From the NCBI GenBank assembly GCA_964629685.1, contig CAZVTT010000003.1, forward strand, positions 22,038 to 86,037: a DNA stretch of 64,000 bases. Direction: 5' to 3'. The position numbers and the translations under genes are program-made. Below, piece by piece: positions 62 to 28,410 of the stretch; the first letter of the stretch is position 1, and each line of letters starts with the position of its first letter. Under the pieces are notes generated by a model. That model searched no databases. It was not told the DNA's origin and worked only from the letters and a program-made list of their open reading frames with translations. The stretch comes from an uncultured Gammaproteobacteria bacterium. Its GTDB lineage: Bacteria > Patescibacteriota > Microgenomatia > UBA10105 > UBA927.

Positions 62-1579
62 TCATATCGTCTCTTCGGCTATAAACGTTTCTACATTCGT
101 ACTACAGGCAGATCTGATATCCACCGGTAACGCCGTGCACCAGAATTCCGCAGCAGCATATCCTTTCCAATCGTACATCTGTCGCACTATTTCCGTATAG
201 CATACTGTGCGTTCCGTACCTTTTGGCAGTACCGCACAATCCGGCATGATTTCCGCGGGTTTGGTCGTTTCACTGATCCGTGCAAGAAAATATCCTTCCA
301 ATGCACCGCGAACACACGTATGTCGAAGCGTATCCGGTACTGTGTCACATTCTGCTAAAACCGGCCGCAGATCACGAAGGTTGCGCTCCCGCACTATCAT
401 AGAAACCACATTGTGTACTAATGGGAGTGCACTCGTATGCAAATCCCGTTCAATCAACTCCAATGCTGCCGGTATTTGTCCCTGTGCCAAATACAAGGTT
501 AACCCTACAAAAGACATCCGGCACGCTGTGTGATAATGCGCGTGCAGTGTCGTACAGATGGCAAAGGGATGCCGCTTTACCTCCTCAGTCAAAGGATATT
601 GTCCACCCGTAATGAGCGACGCCAGCCCGTCTATCACGCCACTGGCACAGTTCTCCCGTTTAATCGAATCAGCGGAAGCTGATTCACATACGGTTATGCC
701 CTGGGGAACCAGTTTCCATGGGTCTGACGTACCCGGTAACTCATGCGCAATCACCGCGCCATGACCAATGCCATGATAACAACTGGCGATCAATTGCCCC
801 TGATTCAGCTCATCAGTAATGCCGTCACACAGTGCACGCGCCCGTGAGAGATTATCCCCGGTTCCGATCATTAACTCCATATACCCGTGAAAAAATCCGT
901 AATCACACATCCGGTAATCCACCTTCCCCGGCAGTGCTCCCTGCCATTTACGGGACAGGAACACTTCCCGCCCGATGACATGCGCTAAATCATGACATAC
1001 CTGCGCAAAATCAGCATTCCCCCGCCGTGCTTCAATATAAGAAAATGCTGCAGCTATGCCCTGACTTTTCACCCGTTGTCTGATTTCCCGTTCCCAACAC
1101 GCCGCGCGGATATCCGTACTCACCACATCACAATCGTGTGTATCCTTCCGTAGTCCTACAAGGGTGAAGACGGATTGCAGCGGCGCACGCAACTGTTCCC
1201 ACCAAGACGTATGCACGATAACAGTACCGGTAAACTGCGGAGACAAATGATCATGGTACCGCCACGATCCGGAACTGGTAAAGCGGAACGTATACGCATC
1301 AGACGCATTCACGGGCCCTTTCGCATCAAACTCCGGATACACTAAATGACTGGGATGTAAATTGGAAGCAGGCCAAAAATCTTTCTCTCTATCGGTACGG
1401 AACGTAATCGATTCTCCTACCCGAATAGAGACTAAACGTGGCTCAAATCCGGTTGCAGTTAACAGAATAGTGGTAGTCCGTGAAGCTTGTTTTAGCACGA
1501 ATGCCATCAGCAAAACACAAACGACTGCACTTCCGATTGGGATTACCAGACGATTCCGATTCTTCATGATCCACATCAT
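62..1579 (-). CDS. Membrane-anchored Cys/His-rich repeat protein (CH family) with N-terminal cupredoxin_1-like domain
   Basis: 505-aa ORF. N-terminal hydrophobic anchor (VIPIGSAVVCVLLMAFVL). Cupredoxin_1-like pattern GFEPRLVSIRVGESITF..WPASNLHPSHLVYPEFD..TFRFTSSGSWRYHDH. CH motifs follow: VCHDLAHVIG, MCDYGFFHGYME, SCYHGIGHG. 5-nt gap to upstream gene. Confidence 0.6.
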   Translation of the reverse strand: MMWIMKNRNRLVIPIGSAVVCVLLMAFVLKQASRTTTILLTATGFEPRLVSIRVGESITFRTDREKDFWPASNLHPSHLVYPEFDAKGPVNASDAYTFRFTSSGSWRYHDHLSPQFTGTVIVHTSWWEQLRAPLQSVFTLVGLRKDTHDCDVVSTDIRAACWEREIRQRVKSQGIAAAFSYIEARRGNADFAQVCHDLAHVIGREVFLSRKWQGALPGKVDYRMCDYGFFHGYMELMIGTGDNLSRARALCDGITDELNQGQLIASCYHGIGHGAVIAHELPGTSDPWKLVPQGITVCESASADSIKRENCASGVIDGLASLITGGQYPLTEEVKRHPFAICTTLHAHYHTACRMSFVGLTLYLAQGQIPAALELIERDLHTSALPLVHNVVSMIVRERNLRDLRPVLAECDTVPDTLRHTCVRGALEGYFLARISETTKPAEIMPDCAVLPKGTERTVCYTEIVRQMYDWKGYAAAEFWCTALPVDIRSACSTNVETFIAEETI

Positions 1580-1584
1580 TCGTT

Positions 1585-2628
1585 TCAGGGCACATCAGGA
1601 CTAAGTAAATCCGCATCTTTACGGCATAGCGATACGTCGTTGGGCGGCAAAGCGGCACAGACGGCATTTGCTTGTGCCGTGTAGTCAGGATGTGCAAAAA
1701 AACTCCATGATGCGCCGGCATAACACCATCGTCTGGATATGGCAGCGGAAATGGTATTGCAGGCGGATATGGCTTTATTCAGGTCATATTGTACGTGCGG
1801 TACCAACGCAAGCCCCAAACCGCGGTAACACTCCCGTTTATTTCCGGATTCCGGTATTCCACTGCACAATGCGTCTATTTTGGGCATATCCGCGGCCAAC
1901 GCATCATAGTACCAGGCTGCCAGTTCCAAATAACAGGATTTGGCAAACCGGCTATCCACACCCGTACAGGGAGCGTATGGCTCAGAAGGCGTAAACGTCC
2001 GCGTCGTAGTTAACGCTTTCGCGCCCGTCACCATCGTCGGATAGTTATACTCCATAAATACACCGCCGCTACACCCAAACCGCTCACCCTGCCACGATAA
2101 TTGACCACAGACGGCCAGTTGCTCAGAAAGTCTCCCCGGTCCGTAATATTCACCCAGTCCGTGACCGATACCATGCGGACACCCCAGTCCCATCAATCCG
2201 AATTTTTCCACGCACATTTTATCAAACCGAACTAACGTCTCCGGTCCGCCTGCGGCAATCGCAGTTCCAAAAAACCCATGGTAACACCCGAATCCGTACG
2301 AATCATCACAAACGGACACCCCTTCTACACCCAAGACACGGTAAAGACTTTCCCCGAAAAGATGCGCCGACAAATGCTGTTGCTGTTGGGGAATATCGGC
2401 AATAGCCTGTTTTACCGTTGTATACGCTACCGGTGCTGTCTGCTCTGAAATAAGTTGTTTAAACATACGGCGGATAGACGAAACATCATCTCCTGCCAAT
2501 GCCGTTTTCAGTTCAGTCACGCTAACCGTCCGGGGGCGATTAAACCGGAAATACGCTACTCCTCCAAACAAAATCAACAAGAATACCACTATGCCGATTT
2601 TTACTGTACGTATTTGTGTCCGACGCAT
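1585..2628 (-). CDS. CH-family secreted Cys/His-rich repeat protein (subfamily D)
   Basis: Track ORF is 1585..2751. The likely start is the internal Met MRRTQIRTVKIGIVVFLLILFGG at 2628, 1 nt after the upstream stop, which yields an N-terminal signal anchor. Motifs HLFGESLYRVLGV, CDDSYGFGCYHGF, CPHGIGHG. Close paralog of 13453..14445. Confidence 0.6.
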   Translation of the reverse strand: MRRTQIRTVKIGIVVFLLILFGGVAYFRFNRPRTVSVTELKTALAGDDVSSIRRMFKQLISEQTAPVAYTTVKQAIADIPQQQQHLSAHLFGESLYRVLGVEGVSVCDDSYGFGCYHGFFGTAIAAGGPETLVRFDKMCVEKFGLMGLGCPHGIGHGLGEYYGPGRLSEQLAVCGQLSWQGERFGCSGGVFMEYNYPTMVTGAKALTTTRTFTPSEPYAPCTGVDSRFAKSCYLELAAWYYDALAADMPKIDALCSGIPESGNKRECYRGLGLALVPHVQYDLNKAISACNTISAAISRRWCYAGASWSFFAHPDYTAQANAVCAALPPNDVSLCRKDADLLSPDVP

Positions 2629-2629
2629 A

Positions 2630-4105
2630 TTATTCACAATATTTCTGTGCCATCGCCTTGGGTAATCCGGTACAAACCTGTTGGGGATACTTCGTCCCGT
2701 AAATCCTGCGCATGTACGACAACGTATGATCCAAACAATGCTCCTGTTCAACTGGAAGCATTGCCCGGGATTTGCAGTATGTTAGTGCTGAAACATATTC
2801 CGTTCCGGGACTCCCGTTATCCACCAGACTCTCTACAAATGTATCCAAACAAAACCCGGTTAATGAAGCAGATAACGCCTTACAACCGGTAATATACGTA
2901 TCCCAGTTCGTCTCTTTTACACTGGCAAATGCCAGTTCCTGAATAACCGTCCGCATTGCCCATTCCACGTACCGTTCCGGAACACGCTGTACTATGAACG
3001 TTTCTGCCTTTTTCATATCAGACTTATCACCCGTTTCCAGTCCCACACCCATTGCTTCATAACAAAATGGCTGGTACGTTTCCGGGACGGCAGGACAAAA
3101 CCAAAACGGATTATCTGCATATTCCACCGGTTTATACGGACTCACGGCATAATGCATCAACACGGCATTAAACATGCCGTTTACGCAATGCGCCCGTTTA
3201 TGCGTATCCAACGTCTCACATTCCGTAAATCCGGCAGCCAGCATCGCCGGCAATGTTTTCCAATCACTTACCGTATGCACACCCAGTAATTCCATAATGC
3301 CGTGACCCAACCCATGTATGCAGGCATGGGTAGCCAAGGGATATTCTGTAGCCAGTGTATTCTCCACGTCTGTACAAAACTGGCGTGCCCGATCTAGTCG
3401 CCTGTCTTGTGTCACGAACACTTCCAAAAATCCGTGAAAAAATCCGGCACCGCAGTACAGTGTTTCCGGAATCATCACTGCAGGTAAATCTTTCCGGTAC
3501 TGCAGATACGATTGCCCCCCTATCCGATGCGTATACGCGTTACACGACATCGCAAAATCCGGAACATCCGTATACAACGTTTTCACCAGTGCAAATGTAG
3601 ACCGAATGCCTTCGGTGCTTAACGTCTGGCGCAGTAACCGTTCCCAACAATTTTGCCGCTGATGTGGCTCAAGAGACAAACACGCCTCGCGGGTTATTTT
3701 CGGAGAACGGTCGGGTATCGGTTCCTGTTTCGGAATAACCTGAATGGTACCTACGTCTGGGGCATAACTCGATCCGATATGATTATGAAACCGCCAGTTA
3801 CCGACCTTATCAAACCGGTACGACCAGGTTTCTTTCGGACCAATGGCTCGTTTCGGATCAAAATCGGAATAAATCATGTGCGACGGGTGATCGTCGGAAG
3901 CCGGCCAATACGGCAATCCACGGGTAGAACTAAATTCTACCGTATCCCCTTCATGAATGATTAATAAGTCGGGTTCAAATCCCTGGTGTGTTAAAACCAC
4001 CCGTGGTGTGGTTTTCAGCCAATACAAATGCCAACCTGCCCATCCGCAAACAAGCAATAATATCAATACGAATCCTATACGAAATAATCGGCCAAAGTAT
4101 TTCAT
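2630..4105 (-). CDS. CH-family protein with N-terminal cupredoxin_1-like domain
   Basis: 491 aa. Anchor FRIGFVLILLLVCGWAGW. Cupredoxin-like GFEPDLLIIHEGDTVEF..WPASDDHPSHMIYSDFD..ETWSYRFDKVGNWRFHNH. Then CNAYTHRIG, YCGAGFFHGFLE, ACIHGLGHG. 3-nt gap to upstream gene. Confidence 0.6.
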   Translation of the reverse strand: MKYFGRLFRIGFVLILLLVCGWAGWHLYWLKTTPRVVLTHQGFEPDLLIIHEGDTVEFSSTRGLPYWPASDDHPSHMIYSDFDPKRAIGPKETWSYRFDKVGNWRFHNHIGSSYAPDVGTIQVIPKQEPIPDRSPKITREACLSLEPHQRQNCWERLLRQTLSTEGIRSTFALVKTLYTDVPDFAMSCNAYTHRIGGQSYLQYRKDLPAVMIPETLYCGAGFFHGFLEVFVTQDRRLDRARQFCTDVENTLATEYPLATHACIHGLGHGIMELLGVHTVSDWKTLPAMLAAGFTECETLDTHKRAHCVNGMFNAVLMHYAVSPYKPVEYADNPFWFCPAVPETYQPFCYEAMGVGLETGDKSDMKKAETFIVQRVPERYVEWAMRTVIQELAFASVKETNWDTYITGCKALSASLTGFCLDTFVESLVDNGSPGTEYVSALTYCKSRAMLPVEQEHCLDHTLSYMRRIYGTKYPQQVCTGLPKAMAQKYCE

Positions 4106-4108
4106 GAA

Positions 4109-5296
4109 TTACTGCGCACAGGCAGCTTGCCACTGTGGCGGCAATACTGCACAAAGCTGTTGCTTTTCCGGAGCATCCGGACGGAAATTATAGTTCGCCA
4201 TTTTTGCCAGTTCCTCATAGCAGGCTTCCTTCACGGAAGCAATTTTTGCATGGTCACAAATATCTACGCCTTTGGCCACGTTTTTATAATCTATTTCCAT
4301 AAATCTGGTCGCGGCATCACTAAAACATAACGGCTGATGCGCTACCGGTAATCCGCTGCAAAAATCACTCACCACACCTACATCCAGATTTAAACGCGGC
4401 ACAATCACATACACCATAGCCCGGTAACACCGTTCGTTTTCAACACCCGAGAGATAAGAACAGAACGATACTAACCCCTCCGGCGTCTGTAACTCGTTTA
4501 CATGGAGTGGCCATCCTTCACTCCAGCATGAACCATGCGCTTTTCCGGTATAGGCAGCACAAAAATTCCGATGTTTCTCTACGGTAATTTCCTTCCCTTT
4601 AATCAACGCAAAATCTTCAGGTTCCAACGGCTGGAAGAGTTGCATAAATACCCCGTCGTAACACAGCTGCGAGTAATCCCTGTCCGGTCCTTTTACCACC
4701 AATTCGTCACACAACGCCAAAGCTTTTGGAATTTCCGCGTTTACGACATACATCAGCAGATGCCCGACAGCATGGTAACAACTCCCCTGCTCTATACCCG
4801 AAGGACTCCAGGAACCCCGTGCTTCACACACATCGGACAATTCATGTTTTAATTGTTGAATTTGTGCCTCCGACTCAATTTTATCGGAACGGAACCGTTC
4901 CTGAAATGCACCGTGGACGCACCCGTTGGAACATACCCCGCTGGGACACCGGGTAATCACATCTTTCCAGTTTTGCGGATTCTTCAGGGTTTCAATTGCC
5001 GATAATTTATGACCCAGTACATGACAATATCCGTAGGAAGCGTCCTGTTCCTGAATATATTTCGTTACCATAAACGCGTCTTCCATGGAAATCTTCCGCA
5101 TGAGTAGTGGTATCTCCGTGTCATAACACGACGGGTGATACGGTGAGGTTGCACATTTTTCTACGACCATCACCGCCAATTGCCGTAACGGTTGATTTCC
5201 GATTGGGGTAATTCCCATGTATCGGATTACCATAATCGAAACCAGACAGGTCAGCAGTACGATCAGACTTCCTTTTATAAGATATGTGTGTTTCAT
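4109..5296 (-). CDS. CH-family secreted Cys/His-rich repeat protein (subfamily B)
   Basis: Track ORF is 4109..5392. The likely start is MKHTYLIKGSLIVLLTCLVSIMVI at 5296, 1 nt after the upstream stop. Motifs YGYCHVLGHKLS, CSNGCVHGAFQERF, SCYHAVGHLL. Paralog of 8000..9229 (PSCYDTEIPLLM vs ADCYDKEIPKLM). Confidence 0.6.
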   Translation of the reverse strand: MKHTYLIKGSLIVLLTCLVSIMVIRYMGITPIGNQPLRQLAVMVVEKCATSPYHPSCYDTEIPLLMRKISMEDAFMVTKYIQEQDASYGYCHVLGHKLSAIETLKNPQNWKDVITRCPSGVCSNGCVHGAFQERFRSDKIESEAQIQQLKHELSDVCEARGSWSPSGIEQGSCYHAVGHLLMYVVNAEIPKALALCDELVVKGPDRDYSQLCYDGVFMQLFQPLEPEDFALIKGKEITVEKHRNFCAAYTGKAHGSCWSEGWPLHVNELQTPEGLVSFCSYLSGVENERCYRAMVYVIVPRLNLDVGVVSDFCSGLPVAHQPLCFSDAATRFMEIDYKNVAKGVDICDHAKIASVKEACYEELAKMANYNFRPDAPEKQQLCAVLPPQWQAACAQ

Positions 5297-5297
5297 A

Positions 5298-6476
5298 TTA
5301 TTCGCACGCATCCTGATACCGTTGTGGTGCCAATGAGCAAATTTCTTTGGCTTTGTTCTCACTATAGCGTTGTTTGGCGAAATGTAAGACATTCACGTAA
5401 CATGCATCCTGCTCAGAGTCGGTCAATAACTCATTTCCGCAAAATGCAAAACCGGATTCATATTCGCGATCTACCACCCCACCGAACTGCACTGCACCAT
5501 GACCAAGACCCGTAATACAAGGTGCTATCAAATCCGGACGGCGTTCCCGACAAACAGGTATCAATGTGGCCGCCGGCGCCTGATCCGGAATAAATCGCAC
5601 ACTATCATCTGCTATCGTCATCATGGCAATATCAGCGTATTCCCGTTCCGCATATCGCTCAACGAACGAAGCTGCCTTTTTCAGATTATATTCGCCCAAC
5701 CATAATACTGCCGGCATCAGATCACGGTAACACGCACCTTTATATTTTTCCGGCTGTTCCCGACAAATCCACATGGGATCATTTGCCCGCATTTTTACGC
5801 CGGCGAGTCCGTTATAGTAGGCCAAAGACAACGAATCGAAAACACCCGTCGCGCAACGCAACAATTGTTCGGGGTCGTTCGGATCCACTACTTTTTCACA
5901 TAACGCGAGTGCCGGATCAACGATTTTATGTTCATCGCCCCAATTCTTCGGTTCATGCACATTCGCCCATCCATGACCGATCCCATGAAAACAGGCATAA
6001 TACGCATCGGGAATTTTGTCCTTTAACTTCTTCCCCACTTCCACACAAAACGCGCGGGCTTGAGTAGGATCACCACTACGGATAACCAACGTTTCCATAA
6101 ATCCGTGATAAAACCCAAATGAACAATACGCAGTTTTTTCATTTAAATCAAACGGTTTTCCGCGGGCAAACAATTCATACGCACGCAATCCTATTTTATG
6201 TGTTACGTCATGACAGGTATCCACAAAGCGTTTATCTTTCGCATTCAACTCGCCCATGAGTGTCAACGCCATGGCCACCCCATGAGTTTTTAATACCTTT
6301 TCAAATAACGACTGCCAACAACTGAGCAACGCGGATTTTTCCGTTTGCTGACAGGTAGTAATCCACGCCGGATCAAACGCAGTCCGTTGATCTTCGTTTC
6401 TGATAAACCAGCCCAGCATCCCCGCAATCAGTAGCAATAAAGCACTCAGGAATAATACCTTCAGTTTACGATTCAT
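5298..6476 (-). CDS. CH-family secreted Cys/His-rich repeat protein (subfamily C)
   Basis: 392 aa. Signal anchor VLFLSALLLLIAGMLGWF. Motifs TCHDVTHKIG, YCSFGFYHGFMETLV, ACFHGIGHG, CITGLGHG. Close paralog of 12251..13402. Confidence 0.6.
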   Translation of the reverse strand: MNRKLKVLFLSALLLLIAGMLGWFIRNEDQRTAFDPAWITTCQQTEKSALLSCWQSLFEKVLKTHGVAMALTLMGELNAKDKRFVDTCHDVTHKIGLRAYELFARGKPFDLNEKTAYCSFGFYHGFMETLVIRSGDPTQARAFCVEVGKKLKDKIPDAYYACFHGIGHGWANVHEPKNWGDEHKIVDPALALCEKVVDPNDPEQLLRCATGVFDSLSLAYYNGLAGVKMRANDPMWICREQPEKYKGACYRDLMPAVLWLGEYNLKKAASFVERYAEREYADIAMMTIADDSVRFIPDQAPAATLIPVCRERRPDLIAPCITGLGHGAVQFGGVVDREYESGFAFCGNELLTDSEQDACYVNVLHFAKQRYSENKAKEICSLAPQRYQDACE

Positions 6477-6488
6477 ACCGATGTATAT

Positions 6489-8069
6489 TTATTCATCCAA
6501 ATCTGACGTAAATACATATATCATCCTATCTCCCATATCCAACGGAATATGCCGAACCGGACGGTATTGCGGGTACGAGAGGGCTGCGTCCTCCAGACAT
6601 TGCTTCGCCATAAATTCCGCCGGATATCGCAGACAGACCACATACCGCCTGCCCCCGGGTACCATTTCCACCACATTAAACCCGTCCGGTACGACCTTAA
6701 GCACCTGTTTTCCCGTTATCGTTTCAATCCAATACAAAAATGCTAAATGATCGTTTGTCATTTCTCCCGGGGCCAGCACGGATACCGTATATGCGGAAGT
6801 ACCGGGCAATGGATTTTGCCGTACATCAGTCAGAATATATTCGGCTGTTTTGCGGGTAACACCGAATTGATCCGCGACAGGTTTCGTAAACACGGGAGGC
6901 TGCATCAACAGGAAGAAGAAAAATCCACCGGCAATAAGCACACCAATCTTCCCGATTCCCTGTCGCTGATGATGCCAGGCGCTTACCATAATGCCGGCAA
7001 TCCCGAGTAAGAGTATCGGTTGAATTATGTGTACGTCGTGATCATGCGGCAAGCGGCCTAATCCCAACGCAAATGTCAGGTAATACAACACCAGAATACC
7101 GGTTACGATCAGGTTACGCCGATACCGGCGAATACCCTCCCAGGAAAACAGACCGAATACGGTTAACGCGGTGGCGGCCACAATCGAACGTTGTTGGTCA
7201 TAAAAAAATAGATCGGTAAACGTCACTGCTAAGGGTTTCCAGAACTCAAGCACCGACGCAAAGGCAAACCGGACATGGTGCGTAAAGAGAAACGCCCCTA
7301 CGACCCGAATAACGCCGAAATGCCACATCAGCGGTGCAAACAACACCATCCCGAAAAACACAAATACTCCGGTAGTAATCATCCGTTGACGGGTATGTTT
7401 GGCAGCAATAATATCAAGCATCCATGCCAACGGTAAAAAAATCAAAATGCCGTAAAACCAACTGCTTAAAAGTACCAGTGCCGCATGTAATCCCCAACGC
7501 AGCGGCACATGCCGTTGCCGGTAACTGACGACGTACCCCCAGAATACAAACAGCAATACCGGTACCAACACATATGGGGGTGTCGTAACCTGCGATATGT
7601 TTACCATCCGCGATGATGCAACAAACAGCGCAGCCGCTACTATCCCCACCAACGGGTGTGCCAGCATCGTCCCCAGCGCAAACAGCGGCAACACCGCTGC
7701 GGCATGTAGCGCGGACGCCAATGCAGCGACAATGACCGGATCAACGGAAAAAAACTTAACAACCGCCATCAGGTAGTAAAAATACGGCGGATAATAAAAT
7801 GCCGGAGATAGTCCGGTAGCCGGATGTCCGACAATAGGCAGTTCCCCATACCGAATAATGTGCTCACTCACAATATGATCTGCGGCTACGTCTCCCCACC
7901 ACCCCATGGTTTCCGGGAGCCGATACCATCGCAACACCAAAGCACAGACAAATAACACGAAAAGCACTCCCAGGTATATCCGGGATATCTGCCGTACCGC
8001 TATTTTGCTGTGGTGTTGGTCTGATTTCGTAGGCATTGTTGTTCCCAAACTGGCGGCAACGCGCCACAA
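6489..8069 (-). CDS. Polytopic membrane protein, GT-C-like architecture (putative lipid-carrier glycosyltransferase), embedded in the CH array
   Basis: 526 aa with 12 or more hydrophobic segments and a C-terminal soluble domain. The first 70 nt overlap the 3' end of 8000..9229, so the real start may be the Met at 8036. Family not assignable by eye. Confidence 0.45.
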   Translation of the reverse strand: MWRVAASLGTTMPTKSDQHHSKIAVRQISRIYLGVLFVLFVCALVLRWYRLPETMGWWGDVAADHIVSEHIIRYGELPIVGHPATGLSPAFYYPPYFYYLMAVVKFFSVDPVIVAALASALHAAAVLPLFALGTMLAHPLVGIVAAALFVASSRMVNISQVTTPPYVLVPVLLFVFWGYVVSYRQRHVPLRWGLHAALVLLSSWFYGILIFLPLAWMLDIIAAKHTRQRMITTGVFVFFGMVLFAPLMWHFGVIRVVGAFLFTHHVRFAFASVLEFWKPLAVTFTDLFFYDQQRSIVAATALTVFGLFSWEGIRRYRRNLIVTGILVLYYLTFALGLGRLPHDHDVHIIQPILLLGIAGIMVSAWHHQRQGIGKIGVLIAGGFFFFLLMQPPVFTKPVADQFGVTRKTAEYILTDVRQNPLPGTSAYTVSVLAPGEMTNDHLAFLYWIETITGKQVLKVVPDGFNVVEMVPGGRRYVVCLRYPAEFMAKQCLEDAALSYPQYRPVRHIPLDMGDRMIYVFTSDLDE

Positions 8070-9229
8070 TATTGTTGTTGCACTGCCGATCCCGGATCAA
8101 AATTAATTTGACCCTGATAGGAAATCGCTTCATAACAGGCGGTTGCCACCTGTGACGCTTCTCCCAGAGCGCATACGTCGCGCGCCCGTGAAACTTCACG
8201 TAACGGATCAATTTGAATCAGCCGTAACGCGACACCGGTAAGACACAAACCCCGGCGCGACAGCGGAATGCCGTTACAATATGCTTCAATTCTGCTCATG
8301 GCATCCGACTGTTCAAACGATTCCACGGTTATGTAATTCAATACACTCATATAACAATCCGTGAGTATGTCTTCCGTCGTTGCATAAGAACAGAATGACA
8401 CCAGTTTTTTAGGATCCCGCAGCGTTTCCCGGAACACAAAAAATGATTCTCTCCTGCACACCCACCAGTGTTCTTTATATCCGTCACAAAATGCCGGAAT
8501 ATCTTCGTCCTTCGGTCGTATATCCTTTACGATGGCCACATCTTCGGGATCGGTTGCCTGAAACACGGTCATAAATATCCCCTGAATGCAGGTGGAAAGA
8601 TAATTCCGGCCATCCGCTTTTATGCTGATTTTTTCGCAAACGTCTATCGCTTTTTCCGGAACACCGCCGGTTATATACAACGTCGTGTGTCCCAGTCCGT
8701 GATAGCACATCGATTTCTCCACTTCATGCGGCGTATACCCCGGGCGGGCCTCACACACGTCTGAAAGATCGGGAATTACTGCCGCTATCTGTTCATCCGT
8801 CAGCACGTCACCGCGGAATTTTTCCGAAAGCGACCCATGCAGACAGCCGTAGTTGCACATGGATAACGGACACCGGCTTAACACATCTTTCCAATATGTT
8901 TTATTCTTTTTCGTTTCCGTGTAACTCAGTTGATGTCCCAGTAAATGGCAATAGACATATTGTGGATCACGATCCTGCACCAACTTTGTCACTTCAAAAG
9001 CCTGTTCCATCGTCAGAAAATCCATAAGTTTGGGAATTTCTTTATCGTAACAATCGGCCCGATACCCCCTATCCTTACACGCAGCGATCATCTGATCGGC
9101 ATATTCGGAGATTGTTTTTGTTTTCGGCTTTCTGCCGGAAAACATCAGTAGTCCTTCCGCCACCACAAAAAACAACAGGAGAAAAACAAGAAACGGTTTT
9201 AGCGGAAAATGTCTGCCGGATTTATGCAT
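8000..9229 (-). CDS. CH-family secreted Cys/His-rich repeat protein (subfamily B)
   Basis: 409 aa. Anchor LKPFLVFLLLFFVVAEGLLMF. Motifs YVYCHLLGHQLS, CNYGCLHGSLSEKF, MCYHGLGHT. 14-nt gap to upstream gene. Confidence 0.6.
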   Translation of the reverse strand: MHKSGRHFPLKPFLVFLLLFFVVAEGLLMFSGRKPKTKTISEYADQMIAACKDRGYRADCYDKEIPKLMDFLTMEQAFEVTKLVQDRDPQYVYCHLLGHQLSYTETKKNKTYWKDVLSRCPLSMCNYGCLHGSLSEKFRGDVLTDEQIAAVIPDLSDVCEARPGYTPHEVEKSMCYHGLGHTTLYITGGVPEKAIDVCEKISIKADGRNYLSTCIQGIFMTVFQATDPEDVAIVKDIRPKDEDIPAFCDGYKEHWWVCRRESFFVFRETLRDPKKLVSFCSYATTEDILTDCYMSVLNYITVESFEQSDAMSRIEAYCNGIPLSRRGLCLTGVALRLIQIDPLREVSRARDVCALGEASQVATACYEAISYQGQINFDPGSAVQQQYCGALPPVWEQQCLRNQTNTTAK

Positions 9230-9243
9230 ACGCTGTACCCTAC

Positions 9244-10776
9244 CTACCGCGGCTCTTCACAATATGTCTGATACGCAACCGGAACCAGTGCACAGACCTG
9301 ATTCATTTTTGCCGTATCGTAAATGCCCCGGAACGTCCGTAACATGTTCTGATAACAATCGGTCTTATTCTCCGGCTTCAGTTCTGGTGAAGCACAAAAT
9401 TTTAATCCTTTTACGTATTCCATCCCCGGTTCCCCGTGTGCTGCAAACCCGCCGGAAATTCCTTTCAGGCATTCGGACGACAGCCGGGATTCCAATTTAT
9501 AACAATCGCGCAATAAATACGTATGATCGTCCTTCACGATTGCCTGCTGCATAATACCGGCAGCCACGGAATTCATTACCATTCCCGCCAGTTCATCTTC
9601 CTTAATCGTTTTGGTATATTTATCGGCAATAGTAACCAAATCATTATTTCCGAACGGACTGATGATCATGGACATTTCGTAATAGCAGGCATGTTTATAC
9701 GCATAGGTGGTCATCTGTTCACAGACTTTAAACGGACGGACAGGATCAACTTTTAAGCCGTAAATTTCCCGCGTATACCAGTTGGCCAATACATTAAACA
9801 CTCCCTGTTCGCACTCCCGGCGTTCAATAGAATCCTGGGTCACCTGACTACACACTTCCAGCGGATGCGTCACGATCGCCACGTCGTTCCCCCACTGATC
9901 CTGAGGCGGCGGATCAGGCATAAAACCGTGTCCGATACTGTGGTAGCAATTCTTACGGATTACCGGCATCTCGGTAGATTTGGTAGACAGATAGTCACAA
10001 AATTCTTTTGCCAAATTTACATCCGGATCGTCCCGTAACATATGTTCTATAAACCCGTGATAAAATCCGTATCCGCAGGCAATCGACTCCGGTGTCCAGT
10101 CTATTTTCCGGAAATCCCGGGTTTTGGCATACTGGTTATACACTACTTCTCCGATCCGGTGTGCCTGTAAATGGCACCCGCTTCCGGCAAATACTTTATC
10201 CGTCTGATACAGCCTGGTAAATTCGGCAAACGCCCCTTTTATGCCGCGGGTGTCCAACGCATCGCTGAGCAATAGGTCCCAGCATTGTTCCCGTTGGTTT
10301 CCTACCAACATTTCCGGTTTGGTACAGTCAAACGGTTCAGCATTCGTAGCCGGATCTACCACGGTAATACGACCCAGATTAAACGGCCGGATATGATCGT
10401 GGTATTGCCAGATTCCTATTTCATCAAACGTAAATGACCAGGATTCCTGCGGGTCAATCGGCTTTTTCGAATCAAAAGCAGCATAGGTATTGTGATAGGG
10501 ATGCGGATTGGATGCCGGCCAAAATGGTTTATTTACTTTGGTGACAAACGTCACCGTTCCGCCTTTCTTCAACCGCACCTGTTTCGGTTCAAAACCACTC
10601 GCCGTTTCGGTAATAGTTACTGCATCAATGGGAATATTCGCAACTGTTTTTTGACGCCGAAGATATAGCCATCCCGCTAAAACAAGTACCCCGATAACCG
10701 TTCCCAAGCCAAAAAATAGCATCGACCGGAAAGGCCGATGAACTGATGTTTTAATACGGGACGGTTTTACTTTCAT
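9244..10776 (-). CDS. CH-family protein with N-terminal cupredoxin_1-like domain
   Basis: 510 aa. Anchor MLFFGLGTVIGVLVLAGWLYL. Cupredoxin-like GFEPKQVRLKKGGTVTF..WPASNPHPYHNTYAAFDS..ESWSFTFDEIGIWQYHDH. Then GCHLQAHRIG, CGYGFYHGFIE, NCYHSIGHG. Overlaps the next gene by 26 nt unless it starts at the Met at 10722. Confidence 0.6.
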   Translation of the reverse strand: MKVKPSRIKTSVHRPFRSMLFFGLGTVIGVLVLAGWLYLRRQKTVANIPIDAVTITETASGFEPKQVRLKKGGTVTFVTKVNKPFWPASNPHPYHNTYAAFDSKKPIDPQESWSFTFDEIGIWQYHDHIRPFNLGRITVVDPATNAEPFDCTKPEMLVGNQREQCWDLLLSDALDTRGIKGAFAEFTRLYQTDKVFAGSGCHLQAHRIGEVVYNQYAKTRDFRKIDWTPESIACGYGFYHGFIEHMLRDDPDVNLAKEFCDYLSTKSTEMPVIRKNCYHSIGHGFMPDPPPQDQWGNDVAIVTHPLEVCSQVTQDSIERRECEQGVFNVLANWYTREIYGLKVDPVRPFKVCEQMTTYAYKHACYYEMSMIISPFGNNDLVTIADKYTKTIKEDELAGMVMNSVAAGIMQQAIVKDDHTYLLRDCYKLESRLSSECLKGISGGFAAHGEPGMEYVKGLKFCASPELKPENKTDCYQNMLRTFRGIYDTAKMNQVCALVPVAYQTYCEEPR

Positions 10777-12247
10777 TGATAAACTCCTTACATATACCCT
10801 GTTCAGCGTCTGTTAAACGCATAGTAGTACAAAACTGCAATGCGTGCGCGTCAGCTGCAGTCCGCTCGCCGGTAAACAAAATTGCCTGAACCAATCCGCG
10901 CAAACAAGAATCTGCCAGATTGGCACTAAACGTCCGACAGGCCGCAAGAGCGTCTGATTGTACTATCGTATCCGTCATACCCGCATTCATCCGCATGTGC
11001 AGCTCTCCCAATGTTACCATAGCTTTCGCAGCAGCCGACGCGTCATCCAGTTTTGAAATCCAGGCTCCGGTTTGTATCAAATCCCTCCCGGTAAAGTGGT
11101 AAATTGGCGGTGTCATACGTTCATAACACCTGCCCTTTAAATCCGCATCAAATCCCCGACAGAACCAATAGGGATCCTTCTCATTCATATCCAGACTATA
11201 CCCATGCCGTACGAAATACATATGATCTATCCCACTAAACACACCATCTATGCATTCACTGCCCGGAGAAAACCGTTTACAGTCCTCCAGAGAATGGTGC
11301 AGTATCTGTTCAATATTTTTCCAATACAGTGTGGCATACATATAGGCTAAGCCGTTCCCGACACCCCGCATACACTGGCCCGATACCTGTGGGTTGTCCG
11401 GAATTTTTCGTGCAGCCTCGTTACAAAATTCCTGCGTCTTGGCATAATTCCGGCTATGACTCATATATTCCGACATAAACCCATGGTAAAAACCGGCAGC
11501 ACATTGCGTCGTAAGTGCCCACTCGGAGAATCGTTCCCCTTCCCTATACCGTTCATATGCATATTCTCCGACAAAATCTATAAGCACATGGCACATACCG
11601 GCTACGGTTGTATTTGACGTATAGAGAGCAGCAACGGTCCGAAGTGTTTGGTCTATACCCTGATTGTCCACCATCTCCGCCAATATATTTTTCCAACATA
11701 TTTCCCGGGTGTTTAACACCGCTTCCGCATCACACACTGCATATTTTTTTTGCCAATCAATCTTCGGCGGGAATATCCGCCGCCATAATCTGCGCGTATA
11801 CTGCTCCAATACAATAGAAAATGCAGGCATCAGCGTACCGGAATGTGTACCCAATACGATAATTTCTCCCGTAGCGATCGGATTTATATGATCATGATAG
11901 TGATAAACTCCCGGTTTCGTGAAGGTAAAAGACCAGGATTCATCGGGTGCCAGGGCGCGTTGGGGATCAAACGGAGCATACACGGTATGTTGCGGATGCG
12001 GATCGGATGCCGGCCAAAACGGCGCGGCGGCGATGGTACTAAACGTCACTGCGGTCTGTACCCGAACCAATCTGATGCGCGGCACAAAACCTGTTCGGGT
12101 AACGGTCACGGCACTGGTCCGCTGGTCCACCGGGAAACCCGAAAGCTGCGATAGCACTATTCCCAAACCAAGTAGTCCCAGTACCAATCCCACCAGTCCG
12201 ATCACCCACCATTTTCGTATTCGTACCCGTTTACGCAAGTAAACCAT
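10751..12247 (-). CDS. CH-family protein with cupredoxin_1-like domain and a degenerate His motif
   Basis: 498 aa. Anchor WWVIGLVGLVLGLLGLGIVL. Cupredoxin-like GFVPRIRLVRVQTAVTF..WPASDPHPQHTVYAPFD..ESWSFTFTKPGVYHYHDH. CH motifs partly degenerate: MCHVLIDFVG, CAAGFYHGFM, and CMRGVGNG where the other paralogs have CxHGxGHG. Confidence 0.55.
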   Translation of the reverse strand: MVYLRKRVRIRKWWVIGLVGLVLGLLGLGIVLSQLSGFPVDQRTSAVTVTRTGFVPRIRLVRVQTAVTFSTIAAAPFWPASDPHPQHTVYAPFDPQRALAPDESWSFTFTKPGVYHYHDHINPIATGEIIVLGTHSGTLMPAFSIVLEQYTRRLWRRIFPPKIDWQKKYAVCDAEAVLNTREICWKNILAEMVDNQGIDQTLRTVAALYTSNTTVAGMCHVLIDFVGEYAYERYREGERFSEWALTTQCAAGFYHGFMSEYMSHSRNYAKTQEFCNEAARKIPDNPQVSGQCMRGVGNGLAYMYATLYWKNIEQILHHSLEDCKRFSPGSECIDGVFSGIDHMYFVRHGYSLDMNEKDPYWFCRGFDADLKGRCYERMTPPIYHFTGRDLIQTGAWISKLDDASAAAKAMVTLGELHMRMNAGMTDTIVQSDALAACRTFSANLADSCLRGLVQAILFTGERTAADAHALQFCTTMRLTDAEQGICKEFINESKTVPY

Positions 12248-12250
12248 GAT

Positions 12251-13402
12251 TTAATTCCTGTCACCCGTACTCCGCTTTCGGCATAAATCCTGCACGGACT
12301 GCGGTACTTCAGCGCATATCTGAATATTTTTTTCCGCCGAATACCACTGCTGTAAATATGAGAAAATATAGTCATAACAGGCTTGCCGCTCGTTCGGCGT
12401 TAACGGTGCCGTCGTACAGAATTCAACCGGTTTTTTATACTCCTGCTCCGGCTGTCCCTGCTCTAAAAACCCATACGCATATCCCTGAATACAGGCTTCC
12501 CGTAAACGGGGTTGGACGCCACGACATTTCGCTATTGTTTCCCGGTGATCTGTCGCATTCATATGGGAAGATCCCACCGGAGCCGCCAGATTTATCATGG
12601 CATGTTGTGCCACTACATCATCGGGAATCGGTTCAATAAATTTTGCTGCACGGGTTATGTCACCCGCGGTTATTGCCAATACCGATATGTTCAGACTTAT
12701 GTAACAGGCGTCCTGATATTCCGCTTTTTGTGTCCGACAGATACGGAGCGGATCACGCTCGTCAAACTTCAGATTATATTCACGGTTGTTGTAAAACAGC
12801 GCTATTCCGTTATATACACCGGTAGCGCAACGGGACCGTTCTTCTGCCGTTACCGATACCTGTTCGCATAATGCCAATGCCGGATCAATCATTGCCTGTT
12901 CATTCCCCCAGGTAGCCGGATCATGATTATTTACCGTTCCGTGTCCGATACCGTGAAAGCACTGAAACACCGCGTCCGGAGAAACTTTGGTAATCTGTTG
13001 ATCCACATAGTCGCAGAACTTTCTGGCAAGCTGCATGTCACCTTTCCGTGACACCAGCGTTTCCATAAAACCATGATAAAACCCATACGAACAGTACGCG
13101 GTTTTGGGGGAAACGGAAAAATCTTTGTTGCGGATAAATAAGTTATACGCCTCTTTCCCGATAAAGTGGGTCAGATCATGACAGGTTCCGGAGAATGCCG
13201 GATTGTTATCATACGCCGTAGCCAAAACGGTTAAGGCACCGTCCACGCCATGGGAATGGAGAATTTTTTTTATGGCAGTCTGCCAGCATACGTCAGAATC
13301 ACAAACAGGCTGGACCAATGGTTCTACCTGTCTCAGGCGCCACAGACTTATCAGCTCCATGCAGACGACAATTACCAGCGCTAATACAATACGTTTTCTC
13401 AT
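12251..13402 (-). CDS. CH-family secreted Cys/His-rich repeat protein (subfamily C)
   Basis: 383 aa. Anchor IVLALVIVVCMELISLW. Motifs TCHDLTHFIG, YCSYGFYHGFMETLV, QCFHGIGHG. Confidence 0.6.
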   Translation of the reverse strand: MRKRIVLALVIVVCMELISLWRLRQVEPLVQPVCDSDVCWQTAIKKILHSHGVDGALTVLATAYDNNPAFSGTCHDLTHFIGKEAYNLFIRNKDFSVSPKTAYCSYGFYHGFMETLVSRKGDMQLARKFCDYVDQQITKVSPDAVFQCFHGIGHGTVNNHDPATWGNEQAMIDPALALCEQVSVTAEERSRCATGVYNGIALFYNNREYNLKFDERDPLRICRTQKAEYQDACYISLNISVLAITAGDITRAAKFIEPIPDDVVAQHAMINLAAPVGSSHMNATDHRETIAKCRGVQPRLREACIQGYAYGFLEQGQPEQEYKKPVEFCTTAPLTPNERQACYDYIFSYLQQWYSAEKNIQICAEVPQSVQDLCRKRSTGDRN

Positions 13403-13452
13403 ACTTCAATTCAGATATACCGTAGTGTCAAAAATATATCTGTACGATAGTT

Positions 13453-14445
13453 TCACTCTCCTGCACATGCCGAAACGATCCGGTCAGGCAAACCGTCACA
13501 GATTCTGGCGGCATTTTCGCGGTCCGGCATACTGGACCAGGTACTCCAAGACGCCTGTTTCCGACAGAGATACACTCCTTCTGTGGTCGGCATACGGGCA
13601 CAGGCGGCAATCGTTTTTTCGACGTTGTAATTATTTGTCGGTGCCGCTATTTGTCCGATTCCTTCAAAACAGGTAGTAATTTCTTGTGGTTTGGGAAGCC
13701 TGAGACACAGCGTCCCCAGCGTTGTAAAGTCATGATCAAATTGCCTCCCCCACCATTGCACGATGGTAAACAAACAATTCATTCGGTACTGCGACGGAAT
13801 ACTGTCACACGGTTCGTATATGTTGTTTCCCACCTGTGGCCGCACACCGGTTTCCACCCCGTCTGCCGTTAAAACGGTCGGCAAATTATATTCCATAAAT
13901 ACCCCGCCGCCACATCCACCGATGTCTTCTTTCCAGGATAATTCCGCACACAAATCCAATGCTTCCACTAACCTGTCACGTCCGAGATATTCCAAAATGC
14001 CATGCCCGATTCCGTGTTGGCAGGCATGCTCCCGCGGGCCGGAATTTTTAATACATGCCAAATCCAAATCATGAATTATTCCTATTCCTTCTGCCCGCAC
14101 GGCTTTACTCAAAAACCCATGGTAACATCCGAATTCATTCTCCGCATCACAGGTACCTATCCCGTTTACCCCTAATGTTTGAAACAACACTTCACCGAAC
14201 AAGTGTGTCATTTCGTGCCGTTTCCCGTGCGGCTCCTGTGCATATTGCGATTTTAACTGCGCATACGCCCTGTCCGGACCGTCCCGTTTTATACTCTGCA
14301 TCCAGACACTCCGCGATTGACTGATACGCTCTTTGGATACGGGTGTATTTGTTTTTCCGGACAGCAGCACAAAAGACTCGATACAAACCACACCGGCCAA
14401 TACCAGGCAGACTGTCCATTTCACCATGCGGTAATTGCCCATCAT
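13453..14445 (-). CDS. CH-family secreted Cys/His-rich repeat protein (subfamily D)
   Basis: Track ORF is 13453..14541. The likely start is MMGNYRMVKWTVCLVLAGVVCI at 14445, 1 nt after the upstream stop. Motifs HLFGEVLFQTLGV, CDAENEFGCYHGF, ACQHGIGHG. Confidence 0.6.
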   Translation of the reverse strand: MMGNYRMVKWTVCLVLAGVVCIESFVLLSGKTNTPVSKERISQSRSVWMQSIKRDGPDRAYAQLKSQYAQEPHGKRHEMTHLFGEVLFQTLGVNGIGTCDAENEFGCYHGFLSKAVRAEGIGIIHDLDLACIKNSGPREHACQHGIGHGILEYLGRDRLVEALDLCAELSWKEDIGGCGGGVFMEYNLPTVLTADGVETGVRPQVGNNIYEPCDSIPSQYRMNCLFTIVQWWGRQFDHDFTTLGTLCLRLPKPQEITTCFEGIGQIAAPTNNYNVEKTIAACARMPTTEGVYLCRKQASWSTWSSMPDRENAARICDGLPDRIVSACAGE

Positions 14446-14446
14446 A

Positions 14447-15667: not shown

Positions 15668-15740
15668 GTGAGTAGATTATAACCTAATACCAAAACGGAA
15701 CAGACAGCTATCACACAGTACGGGTAGAGAAGTAAATGTC

Positions 15741-16313: not shown

Positions 16314-16432
16314 ACGATTACCCTAATCCTGCCGCAATTTATTCCCCCTGTCAAGGACAGTACCATACCAAACAGCAATACCCGGAAAAACGTGCATACT
16401 GTAGAAACTACAATAAAGAAGCAATTATACTT

Positions 16433-22078: not shown

Positions 22079-22191
22079 TTGATGGTAATCATAAAAGATA
22101 GCTACTATCTCATCATAGTAGAGAGATAGTTAAACTCAAAAACCCCATGAATACAATTGCGTTTACACTACGGGAAATAAACACCCGTATC

Positions 22192-24405: not shown

Positions 24406-24406
24406 C

Positions 24407-28318: not shown

Positions 28319-28410
28319 TACTTGCTATTGTTATACAATCGCATCGGTATTACGGTGTGATCACATACTTCTGCTCCGTGTACATTCTGCTAAAATTTCC
28401 GCATACAGAT

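Follow-up and report, generated by a model that had tools for sequence, protein, structure and literature searches.

Four genes of an array in the 64-kb window (the whole stretch of DNA analysed) encode, behind an N-terminal anchor, a domain that resembles the copper proteins of the cupredoxin superfamily and lacks their cysteine. This raises two questions: is the domain really a cupredoxin, and what could its conserved histidines bind? The sequence-only reading of this DNA had proposed four array members with such an N-domain fused to a CH domain. Both points were borne out, as all four ORFs were found on the minus strand and the fusion was seen in every one.

The array and its N-terminal domains

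The array lies on the minus strand within a cell-envelope glycosylation island (PMT_2-like GT-C, GT2, sugar-nucleotide enzymes). HMM searches found 14 CH paralogs across the window, 11 of them in the array, and 4 of these 11 carry the N-terminal Cys-less cupredoxin domain. Each of the four genes has the same layout: an N-terminal hydrophobic anchor, an N-domain of about 94 aa, and a Cys/His-rich CH domain of about 350 aa.

62..16313, minus strand: co-oriented array of 11 CH-domain paralog genes, a multi-TM gene and a small head gene (ORF list)
6489-8069, minus strand: multi-TM gene interposed in the array
62-1579, 1585-2751, 2630-4105, 4109-5392, 5298-6476, 8000-9229, 9244-10776, 10751-12247, 12251-13402, 13453-14541 and 14447-15667: genes with CH-domain HMM matches
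1202..1483, minus strand: Cys-less cupredoxin N-domain of gene 62-1579, aa 33-126 (family HMM 119.5 bits; PF13473 E 0.0018, 18.7 bits)
3725..4015, minus strand: Cys-less cupredoxin N-domain of gene 2630-4105, aa 31-127 (family HMM 108.9 bits; F-H-N-H variant)
10348..10629, minus strand: Cys-less cupredoxin N-domain of gene 9244-10776, aa 50-143 (copy used for the AF2 model)
11843..12124, minus strand: Cys-less cupredoxin N-domain of gene 10751-12247, aa 42-135 (family HMM 110.8 bits; PF13473 E 0.013)
15741..16313, minus strand: head-of-array 190-aa protein with a TM anchor, a low-complexity linker and a two-Cys domain of about 85 aa

The AF2 model of the gene 9244-10776 copy (pLDDT 94, pTM 0.89) matched cupredoxins only in Foldseek, with target TM of 0.7-0.78, and the family profile retrieved amicyanin from the PDB (E 4.5e-6), which makes the single-domain amicyanin / Cupredoxin_1 type its best sequence relative. 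The cupredoxin assignment of the sequence-only reading thus stood up to comparison with the PF13473/cupredoxin profiles and to structure modelling. As modelled, the N-domain is a member of the cupredoxin fold superfamily, an eight-stranded Greek-key beta-sandwich. Formal membership of PF13473 (Cupredoxin_1), defined by a gathering threshold of 27 bits, was ruled out for the window copies, which scored, in gene order, 18.7, no match, 15.7 and 16.0 bits, all below the threshold. The copy in gene 2630-4105 had no Pfam match at all, and an NCBIfam plastocyanin match at E 0.019. Over 60 family domains, PF13473 was matched by 47 (E<=0.01, best 9.4e-8), PF00127 by 13 and Cu-oxidase_3 by 3. By these profile scores, the family is a peripheral subfamily of the clan, of which the PF13473 model captures part of the members.

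The domain was found in at least 569 species genomes, nearly all of them Patescibacteria. Its commonest form is a stand-alone protein of about 125 aa, and several copies per genome are common, with four in this window. Tandem duplications with short linkers (P0242, 227 aa, and P0246), proteins with two cupredoxin and two CH domains, and fn3-containing surface proteins with the domain also occur. Many homologs are already flagged PF13473, the database labels for the domain are 'cupredoxin domain-containing protein' or 'plastocyanin', and literature searches on CPR cupredoxins or blue-copper proteins gave nothing relevant. The family is uncharacterised, very widespread and Patescibacteria-specific. 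The AF2 model of gene 9244-10776 places an N-terminal TM helix at residues 18-45, which suggests that the N-domain is extracytoplasmic and membrane-anchored; the 16 conserved Cys of the fused CH domain are consistent with disulfides outside the cell.

Pairwise identity among the four N-domains is just 35-48%, and all motif residues are kept (GF[EV]P, WPASxxHPxH, FD, [ED][ST/A][WY][ST][FY]xF and G-x-[WY]-x-[YF]-H-[DN]-H), a retention that, judged from the alignment, is far beyond chance expectation. The two His-containing motifs lie as follows.

1346..1375, minus strand: WPASNLHPSH, gene 62-1579 (backed by column conservation)
3878..3907, minus strand: WPASDDHPSH, gene 2630-4105
10492..10521, minus strand: WPASNPHPYH, gene 9244-10776 (W86-H95, including H92 and H95)
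11987..12016, minus strand: WPASDPHPQH, gene 10751-12247
1247..1270, minus strand: GSWRYHDH, gene 62-1579 (multicopper-oxidase HXH-like; aligns to two-domain laccase 'AGYWHYHDHV')
3779..3802, minus strand: GNWRFHNH, gene 2630-4105 (Asn at the ex-Cys position)
10393..10416, minus strand: GIWQYHDH, gene 9244-10776 (G121-H128; D127 on the type-1 Cys column)
11888..11911, minus strand: GVYHYHDH, gene 10751-12247

The consensus first drawn from the sequence was too narrow at several points. Its Y-H-D-H occurs in three genes, but is F-H-N-H in gene 2630-4105, and its F-D-S is present in gene 9244-10776 alone (FDA or FDP elsewhere). Gene 10751-12247 departs from the F-E-P and G-x-W elements (GFVP, GVYHYHDH), and gene 62-1579 from E-S-W-S-F-T-F (DAYTFRF). 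The absence of Cys holds for all four domains; that of Met holds for three, gene 2630-4105 having one non-conserved Met.

The head-of-array protein had been taken for a fifth degenerate cupredoxin. It is indeed weakly cupredoxin-like (PF13473 E 0.015; profile matches in the PDB mostly cupredoxins, best E 0.0047, with a conserved Cys on the type-1 Cys column), but belongs to a separate two-Cys family from which HPxH and HDH are absent. Only its first 31-37 columns or so align with the N-domain family (hhalign 66% over 31 columns). From these alignments, the domain is probably a degenerate cupredoxin outside the HPxH/HDH family. Homologs occur in 11 of the 77 family loci and in L007, a locus whose array has a divergently oriented ArsR/HTH_5 regulator beside it.

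The lost type-1 site and the conserved histidines

Residues are numbered here after gene 9244-10776 (H92, H95, D102, H126, D127, H128). A type-1 copper site, with a strand-4 His and a Cys, a His and a Met/Gln on the strand 7-8 loop, was found in none of the four domains. Asp or Asn occupies the type-1 Cys column, D127 aligning to amicyanin Cys92, and the columns of the amicyanin loop His95 and Met98 are variable in the family. The residue at the N-terminal type-1 His position is ambiguous, being F85 or S89 in HMMER alignments and H92 in the 'HPxH' register of multicopper oxidases (MCOs). As Cys, loop His and Met are all missing, a type-1 blue copper site is rejected. The loss of the Cys/His/Met set claimed earlier is therefore confirmed, the Cys column itself being taken by Asp. 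The canonical PF13473 stretch Y-x-C-x-x-H-x-x-M invoked for comparison was indeed seen in canonical multi-repeat relatives of the YxCxxHPxM kind (e.g., YFCELHPDMTG).

What the family conserves instead are histidines. Over 356 distinct homologous domains, conservation reached 100% for H92 and H126, 99.7% for H128 and 99.4% for H95, and the columns of D102 (99.7%), A88 (99.7%) and W86 (99.4%) are nearly as strict. H95N was seen in one domain only, P0246, where it is paired with H128E. The weakest of these columns is that of D127 (94.9%, Asn 4.5%), where N, G and K are tolerated. Compared with the amicyanin / Cupredoxin_1 type, the N-domain shares an extracytoplasmic, often membrane-anchored setting and, as the alignment is free of gaps, a strand 7-8 connection of the same length. 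It differs in a four-residue 'WPAS' insertion and an invariant HPxH after strand 4, and in invariant His around the ex-Cys position; a blue copper site is impossible in it.

The C-terminal half of the domain recalls MCOs. Its best matches were to ascorbate oxidase 'PGTFFYHGHLG' and 'PGVWAFHCHIEPH' (E 5e-5), laccase 'GTFWYHSHL' and the 2dMCO 3g5w 'PGLWMIHDHV', and a real window sequence matched two-domain laccase 'AGYWHYHDHV'. This similarity is that of a short motif, with E of 0.02-0.1 for real window sequences and 5e-5 for the consensus query only. The copper-ligand motifs of MCOs, which include HXH and HCH, have been listed as HXHG, HXH, HXXHXH and HCHXXXHXXXXM (PMC7036934). By its residues and context, G-x-W-x-Y-H-D-H is the MCO HXH signature flanking the Cys position, and the N-domain presents HXH at just that place, in a G-x-W-x-Y-H-x-H context. 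The MCO domains devoid of a type-1 site (domain 1 of laccase and ascorbate oxidase, domain 1 of two-domain small laccases, domain 2 of 3g5w) have the same G-x-W-x-Y-H-[DSG]-H where strand 7 ends. The motif is identical to 'WHYHDH' of two-domain laccases and to 'IHDH' of 3g5w, and the upstream His-x(2)-His of the N-domain recalls HXXHXH (PMC7036934). However, a full MCO has at least two cupredoxin domains, the four motifs and, besides a type-1 site, a trinuclear cluster of eight His. The N-domain protein falls short of this, having typically one cupredoxin domain, one HXH-like motif (YHDH) and one HxxH, and lacking both HCH and a type-1 site. Unlike the MCO domains above, the N-domain is single or CH-fused, with one HXH only and no type-1 cupredoxin partner.

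The sequence-only reading had seen the copper ligands replaced by HPxH and YHDH, to give a His/Asp-only metal site. A one-for-one replacement of the type-1 ligands did not hold: the His pair flanks the Cys position, and strand periodicity puts D127 on the opposite face. Along strand 121-127, AF2 strands and conservation put the conserved W123, Y125 and D127 on one face, positions 122 and 124 being variable, and H126 and H128 on the other. Because the two His are opposite D127, and D127 varies, the site is likely His-only. It would lie on a face that is exposed or forms an interface, and not, as a His/Asp site would, in the former type-1 pocket. A pocket holding H126, D127 and H128 together is disfavoured, as D127 faces away and tolerates N, G or K.

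Fusion partners and neighbourhood

The CH domain is the most frequent companion of the N-domain, fused to it in 55 of the 77 loci and at most 4 kb away in 68. In this window the fused copies are the following.

95..1135, minus strand: CH domain of gene 62-1579, fused to the cupredoxin domain (CH HMM 246.6 bits)
2633..3685, minus strand: CH domain of gene 2630-4105 (CH HMM 311.9 bits)
9250..10329, minus strand: CH domain of gene 9244-10776 (CH HMM 437.8 bits; all-alpha, AF2 helices 159-506)
10754..11737, minus strand: CH domain of gene 10751-12247 (CH HMM 259.4 bits; H206D, H279R, H283N)

The copy of gene 9244-10776 has 16 conserved Cys and the pairs H202/H206, H240/E244 and H279/H283 on three helices; no PDB fold match was found for it.

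A second companion is a CopC-like beta module, which the N-domain adjoins in 22 of the 77 loci, often with overlapping stop/start, and to which it is fused in P0292, P0301, P0332, P0353, P0360 and P0363. In 22/22 examined copies of the module the signal peptide ends in [A/G]|H, so that the mature protein is predicted to start with His, the residue by which the beta-barrel of the CopC family binds Cu(II). Pfam and PDB sequence searches with the module gave no significant match, one homolog search gave 2 proteins only, and the module was looked for in the 64-kb window and not found. No copper transporter or copper regulator was found in the window either, and its tRNA and Rfam scans were both empty. 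Over the 77 loci, no recurring metal transporter was seen near the family, and unbiased clustering of the other ORFs yielded no further conserved neighbour (largest cluster, 6 loci).

In PmoB, an HxH pair and the N-terminal His are copper ligands. Histidine-brace sites of the CopC / YcnI / PmoB type bind Cu(II) through N/O ligands only, in small extracellular beta-sandwich proteins (PMC9182242). Here it is the partner module, with its putative CopC-like fold and predicted mature N-terminal His, that carries the brace-like feature, and not the cupredoxin domain, which has no N-terminal His because the TM anchor precedes it.

Candidate roles of the domain

We consider it an even bet that the domain, as its residues and partners suggest, holds a His-only type-2-like copper site and serves as a surface copper relay or redox module together with the CopC-like and CH partners. 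In place of the type-1 set, the domain has H-P-x-H behind strand 4 and H-x-H where strand 7 ends. H-x-H flanks the ex-Cys position as the trinuclear-cluster ligands of MCOs do, which turns it away from the former type-1 pocket, probably towards an exposed edge of the sandwich. One copper ion would be bound by H92, H95, H126 and H128, possibly with D102, in an N/O-only site of type-2-like character, and D127 would have a second-shell or structural role. This would make the domain a copper-binding station (relay and/or redox) in a cell-surface module, whose partners would be the CopC-like protein with its mature N-terminal His (a 'histidine brace' type for copper) and the CH domain rich in Cys and His. 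The link to copper is indirect, through superfamily heritage and fusion or adjacency to the CopC-like N-terminal-His module. Several observations weigh against the proposal: the ambiguous N-terminal type-1 His position, the shortness of the MCO-like motif, a window that is a glycosylation island with neither a CopC-like gene nor a copper transporter or regulator, and the lack of a recurring metal transporter over the 77 loci. The analysis shows the fold, the missing type-1 ligands, the invariant His, the MCO-type motif and the ties by fusion and neighbourhood; it infers the outward-facing topology, metal binding, copper as the metal, the ligand set given above, and the direction and purpose of any transfer.

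A first alternative is a CPR counterpart of the Efe/Ftr ferrous-iron systems, in which Fe, Zn, Ni or Mn would be taken up, stored or sensed by way of the His/Asp cluster that binds it, the parts being an EfeO-Cup/FtrB-like cupredoxin, an alpha-helical metal domain and an Ig-fold P19/FtrA. The EfeO N-domain and FtrB (PDB 8vuk), of the Cys-less Cup-I/Cup-II type, are likewise cupredoxin folds without Cys, and EfeO joins a cupredoxin to an all-alpha metal-binding (HXXE) domain (PMC9174327), as the N-domain is joined to CH. FtrB has Asp at the Cys position, binds Cu(II) with micromolar affinity, and has D118 and H121 (D-x-x-H) with a Glu patch for iron (PMC11966278); the divergent regulator of L007 would also fit. 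We nevertheless hold this alternative to be unlikely. The N-domain has Asp on the Cys column, but three residues on (+3, R130) the family varies, so that the D-x-x-H spacing is missing, and neither a Glu triad nor the Glu/Asp iron patch of FtrB/EfeO is conserved; HPxH and HxH are conserved instead. FTR1/EfeU permease and DyP peroxidase are absent from the window and from the 77 loci. The CH domain is unlike the M75/imelysin fold, EfeO aligning to it over 109 residues only, and an all-imidazole site with a mature N-terminal His partner is more typical of Cu(II).

It seems equally improbable that no metal is bound, and that diversifying surface proteins use the cupredoxin scaffold as a head for structure, adhesion or ligand binding, its His/Asp cluster serving catalysis, pH sensing, or glycan or host-ligand binding. 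The glycosylation island, the extreme expansion of CH paralogs, the fn3-containing proteins and the lack of metal-homeostasis genes nearby would all suit such a role. However, near-invariance of four His across domains otherwise 30-50% identical is what marks a metal or catalytic site and not a variable binding surface, the positions of these His are copper-binding ones in homologous MCO domains, and operon and fusion tie the domain tightly to a module whose mature N-terminal His is conserved in every copy.

Finally, HxxH and HxH of two or three domains (eight His per dimer) could build a catalytic copper centre at an interface, be it in a homo-oligomer, a natural tandem or between cupredoxin and CH, giving a bi-/trinuclear O2-reactive or NirK-like inter-subunit type-2 site of the sort known from two-domain MCOs and nitrite reductases, and hence an oxidase or reductase rather than a mononuclear binder. 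Identity of the motif to the trinuclear-cluster HXH of two-domain laccases and 3g5w, the Cu-oxidase_3 matches, the short-linker tandems and 2xCUP+2xCH proteins, the several copies per genome and the predicted exposed face of the His residues all speak for this proposal. We judge it very unlikely, since each domain has a single true HXH, the upstream HxxH is without the third His of HXXHXH, and no type-1 site occurs anywhere in the system as an electron feed. A living counterpart of the hypothetical single-domain MCO ancestor, which would equip ultra-small CPR bacteria, poor in respiration, with a surface O2-/ROS-reactive copper enzyme loaded by the CopC-like chaperone, is similarly a long shot.

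Patescibacteria (CPR) represent a large share of bacterial diversity, with tiny genomes and almost no recognised surface redox or metal biology. The 'plastocyanin' labels in their genomes are poor evidence for electron-transport chains. If copper is bound through the invariant His, the family would constitute a new and abundant class of type-2-like cupredoxin site, and three uncharacterised modules, namely a CopC-like N-terminal-His protein, a Cys-less cupredoxin and the CH domain, would be joined in one surface copper system. It would also provide a natural single-domain protein with the MCO HXH signature, which would be relevant to the origins of MCOs.

The paralogous gene array and its surroundings

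In the leftmost 16 kb of the window, the ORF list shows a co-oriented array of paralogous genes, all on the minus strand. An HMM made from homologs detected the CH domain, a Cys/His-rich all-alpha domain of about 350 aa, in 11 array genes and in three paralogs beyond the array. In four array genes, a further domain of about 94 aa (N-domain) follows the N-terminal hydrophobic anchor and precedes the CH domain.

N-domains and additional CH paralogs
1202-1483, minus strand: N-domain of gene 62-1579 (aa 33-126)
3725-4015, minus strand: N-domain of gene 2630-4105 (aa 31-127)
10348-10629, minus strand: N-domain of gene 9244-10776 (aa 50-143)
11843-12124, minus strand: N-domain of gene 10751-12247 (aa 42-135)
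20996-22078: CH paralog
27140-28318: CH paralog
29961-31079: CH paralog

The four N-domains share 35-48% pairwise identity, and none of them contains Cys. The motifs that the sequence-only reading had listed for them were recovered with exceptions: gene 2630-4105 has F-H-N-H, gene 10751-12247 has GFVP and GVYHYHDH, and 'FDS' occurs in one copy only.

Across the window, multi-TM proteins of about 520-610 aa alternate with CH paralogs, several of them scoring as PMT_2, PTPS_related or GT-C-like glycosyltransferases. Because these genes occur together with GT2 and sugar enzyme genes, the whole window looks like a cell-envelope glycosylation island.

Other genes of the window
6489-8069: multi-TM protein
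16433-18271: multi-TM protein
18268-18999: GT2
18654-20285: UDP-glucose dehydrogenase
20292-20915: DUF7282 (PF23951) protein
22147-23772: multi-TM protein
24386-25516: pretoxin-HINT / Hint domain protein (C-terminal domain, PF07591, E 8e-14)
25576-27132: multi-TM protein
28357-29955: multi-TM protein
31098-32765: multi-TM protein
32737-33783: DUF7282 (PF23951) protein
36211-37917: multi-TM protein
37871-38905: GT2
39082-42338: multi-TM protein
43437-44909: DegT aminotransferase
44962-45948: epimerase/dehydratase
49662-50762: Fic/DOC protein
50847-51632: DUF695/RraB protein
51937-52767: epimerase/dehydratase
52730-53464: GT2

Each DUF7282 gene has a CH paralog or a gene resembling a membrane glycosyltransferase next to it, and the domain content of 24386-25516 hints at a polymorphic-toxin or self-splicing module. 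The G+C content is 0.41 at 50001-52000 versus about 0.48 elsewhere in the window; the low-G+C region 49662-52000, which contains the Fic/DOC and DUF695/RraB genes, may be a small acquired island. The GC skew is negative across the window whatever the local gene orientation (cumulative -4.18 over 64 kb), which is consistent with the plus strand being the lagging-strand template throughout. No tRNA or Rfam RNA was found in the window.

A cupredoxin fold and the lost type-1 site

Pfam Cupredoxin_1 matched three of the four window copies below its cut-off of 27 bits (16-19 bits, E 0.002-0.015), and NCBIfam gave weak amicyanin, plastocyanin and pseudoazurin matches. Amicyanin was matched in the PDB by one window N-domain alone (E 3e-4). 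The assignment to the cupredoxins, first proposed from the sequence, was confirmed by a profile of 121 full-length homologs, which matched amicyanin in the PDB at E 4.5e-6, and by structure comparison. From the alignment of this profile, AlphaFold2 gave a confident model of gene 9244-10776 (pLDDT 94, pTM 0.89), in which residues 18-45 form a TM helix, 50-140 a beta-sandwich and 159-506 an all-alpha domain, and Foldseek against the PDB retrieved exclusively cupredoxins, with target TM 0.7-0.78. The N-domain is thus a cupredoxin fold. For the CH domain, neither search gave a meaningful match in the PDB. Among 60 family domains, Pfam found PF13473 in 47 (best 9.4e-8), PF00127 in 13 and Cu-oxidase_3 in 3.

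In HMMER alignments, the Asp of Y-H-D-H sits on the column of amicyanin Cys92, and the columns of amicyanin His95 and Met98 are variable across the family. The equivalent of the N-terminal type-1 His is ambiguous, amicyanin His53 falling opposite F85 or S89 (numbering of gene 9244-10776 here and below), and the family carries a 4-residue 'WPAS' insertion near this position. Judging from these alignments, the type-1 copper site is absent from the family. The canonical relatives retrieved in an exhaustive search have Y-x-C-x-x-H-P-x-M, as had been anticipated.

Invariant histidines and the multicopper oxidase signature

Conservation was calculated over 356 distinct N-domains from fused, stand-alone and other architectures. 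H92 and H126 are present in 100% of them, H128, D102 and A88 in 99.7%, H95 and W86 in 99.4%, and D127 in 94.9% (Asn in 4.5%, also K and G). H95N occurs in one domain alone, the degenerate domain 1 of the homologous protein P0246, where it is coupled with H128E.

When the C-terminal half of the N-domain was used as query against the PDB, the top sequence matches were multicopper oxidases (MCOs) at their copper-cluster motifs, not blue copper proteins: ascorbate oxidase ('PGTFFYHGHLG' in domain 1 and 'PGVWAFHCHIEPH' in domain 3, E 5e-5), laccase ('GTFWYHSHL') and the two-domain oxidase 3g5w ('PGLWMIHDHV'). Also, the sequence of gene 62-1579 matched amicyanin and many two-domain laccases, in which 'AGYWHYHDHV' aligned to its 'SGSWRYHDHL' (E 0.02-0.3). 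[quoted passage not shown] From this list and the alignments, the family G-x-W-x-Y-H-D-H therefore corresponds to the MCO 'HXH' signature, its two His standing on either side of the type-1 Cys position, and the family H-P-x-H is similar to the opening four residues of HXXHXH.

Along strand 121-127 conservation alternates, W123, Y125 and D127 being conserved and 122 and 124 variable; H126 and H128 share the register of these variable positions. D127 is so predicted to face the old Cys pocket, and H126 and H128 the opposite, exposed face. Taken with DSSP and what is known of MCO structures, the sequence suggests that this face is the one where MCO domains hold their cluster ligands.

Distribution, partner genes and a putative copper role

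With the full protein as query, the homolog search returned 153 proteins from Patescibacteria MAGs that combine the two domains in the same way; 'cupredoxin domain-containing protein' and 'plastocyanin' are among their names. When the profile was restricted to the N-domain, more than 1000 proteins were found, the best being stand-alone proteins of 115-160 aa (anchor and domain); WPAS, HPxH and [FY]HDH were each present in 118-119 of 120 matches. In the exhaustive search, 10,355 cluster representatives passed E<=1e-3 and 301 passed E<=1e-30; the matches with lower scores were canonical type-1 repeats. Of the 150 top-ranking representatives, the 126 newly returned ones were sorted by architecture: cupredoxin + CH (61), stand-alone cupredoxin (23), 2x(cupredoxin + CH) (3), and combinations with other partners, among them tandem pairs and fn3 surface proteins (17). 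Outside the window, P0242, P0246, P0241 and P0243 show tandem Cys-less cupredoxin duplications, some with linkers of 13-30 aa, and 2x(cupredoxin + CH).

With one genome per species scanned, WPAS[ND]xHPxH was found in at least 569 genomes, nearly all labelled Paceibacterota, Nomura-, Kaiser-, Adler-, Giovannoni-, Doudna- or Roizmanbacteria, Microgenomates, Saccharibacteria or similar; the few other labels may reflect binning or automatic naming. Within 4 kb on either side of 77 pattern-bearing loci, a CH domain was present in 68, a fused cupredoxin-CH gene in 55 and a stand-alone cupredoxin gene in 35, a CH gene lying close by in 26 of the latter. When the remaining ORFs were clustered without bias, no further conserved neighbours emerged, notably no metal transporters.

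In six representatives the N-domain is fused to an upstream module comprising a signal peptide, a beta domain of about 115 aa and 1-2 TM helices. This CopC-like module is a separate gene adjoining, often overlapping, the cupredoxin gene at 22 of the 77 loci; it also occurs at the homologous loci L003 and L007, and none was found within the window. In 22/22 module genes, [A/G]|H marks the end of the signal peptide, and the mature protein is therefore predicted to begin with His. CrdA belongs to the CopC family, and the CopC Cu(II) site involves the N-terminus (PMC9182242). Because the fold is common and the module had no significant sequence match in Pfam or the PDB, this pointer to copper is supportive rather than conclusive.

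The 190-aa gene heading the window's array (15741-16313) has homologs that head or join arrays elsewhere, at L007 (E 6e-13) and 11 of the 77 loci. Its C-terminal domain of about 85 aa has two Cys, one in strand 1 and one in 'G-x-Y-x-Y-x-C', which aligns with the type-1 Cys. The signal is weak and consistently cupredoxin (Pfam E 0.015; profile against the PDB nearly all cupredoxins, best E 0.0047; hhalign against the N-domain family 66% over 31 columns), and the His ligands and both family motifs are missing. What had been taken for a fifth degenerate copy is thus probably a cupredoxin-like domain of a separate family. At L007, genes of this small anchored two-Cys family (664-1176, 15843-16292, 16323-16817) likewise head or accompany CH arrays, the head gene being divergent from an ArsR/HTH_5-type regulator (263-616).

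We hypothesize, at roughly even odds, that the N-domain is a Cys-less extracytoplasmic cupredoxin with a putative type-2-like copper site, partner in a surface copper relay or redox module. A role with iron or another metal, by analogy with EfeO/FtrB/P19 systems, appears unlikely: the architectural parallels with EfeO/FtrB are real (PMC9174327, PMC11966278), but no permease was seen in the window or at the 77 loci, and the Glu patch and the M75 fold are lacking. Set beside the invariant histidines, a metal-free structural or ligand-binding head within the glycosylation island is also improbable. That oligomers or tandems form an interface bi-/trinuclear or NirK-like site seems more doubtful still.

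The cupredoxin fold is already known, family members being tagged as such in databases, as are Cys-less cupredoxins as an idea (EfeO-Cup, FtrB, T1-less MCO domains). The novelty lies in a combination for which we found no description in the searchable literature: the invariant WPAS-x2-HPxH ... FD ... GxWx[YF]HDH subfamily, an MCO-type HXH on a single-domain protein, near-restriction to Patescibacteria, and genetic coupling to the CopC-like module and the CH domain. In the copper reading, one putative copper would be held on the MCO-cluster face by a His-only site, H126 and H128 with H92 and/or H95, perhaps D102, and the N-domain would form, with the CH domain and a CopC-like partner, a module for copper relay or redox work at the surface.
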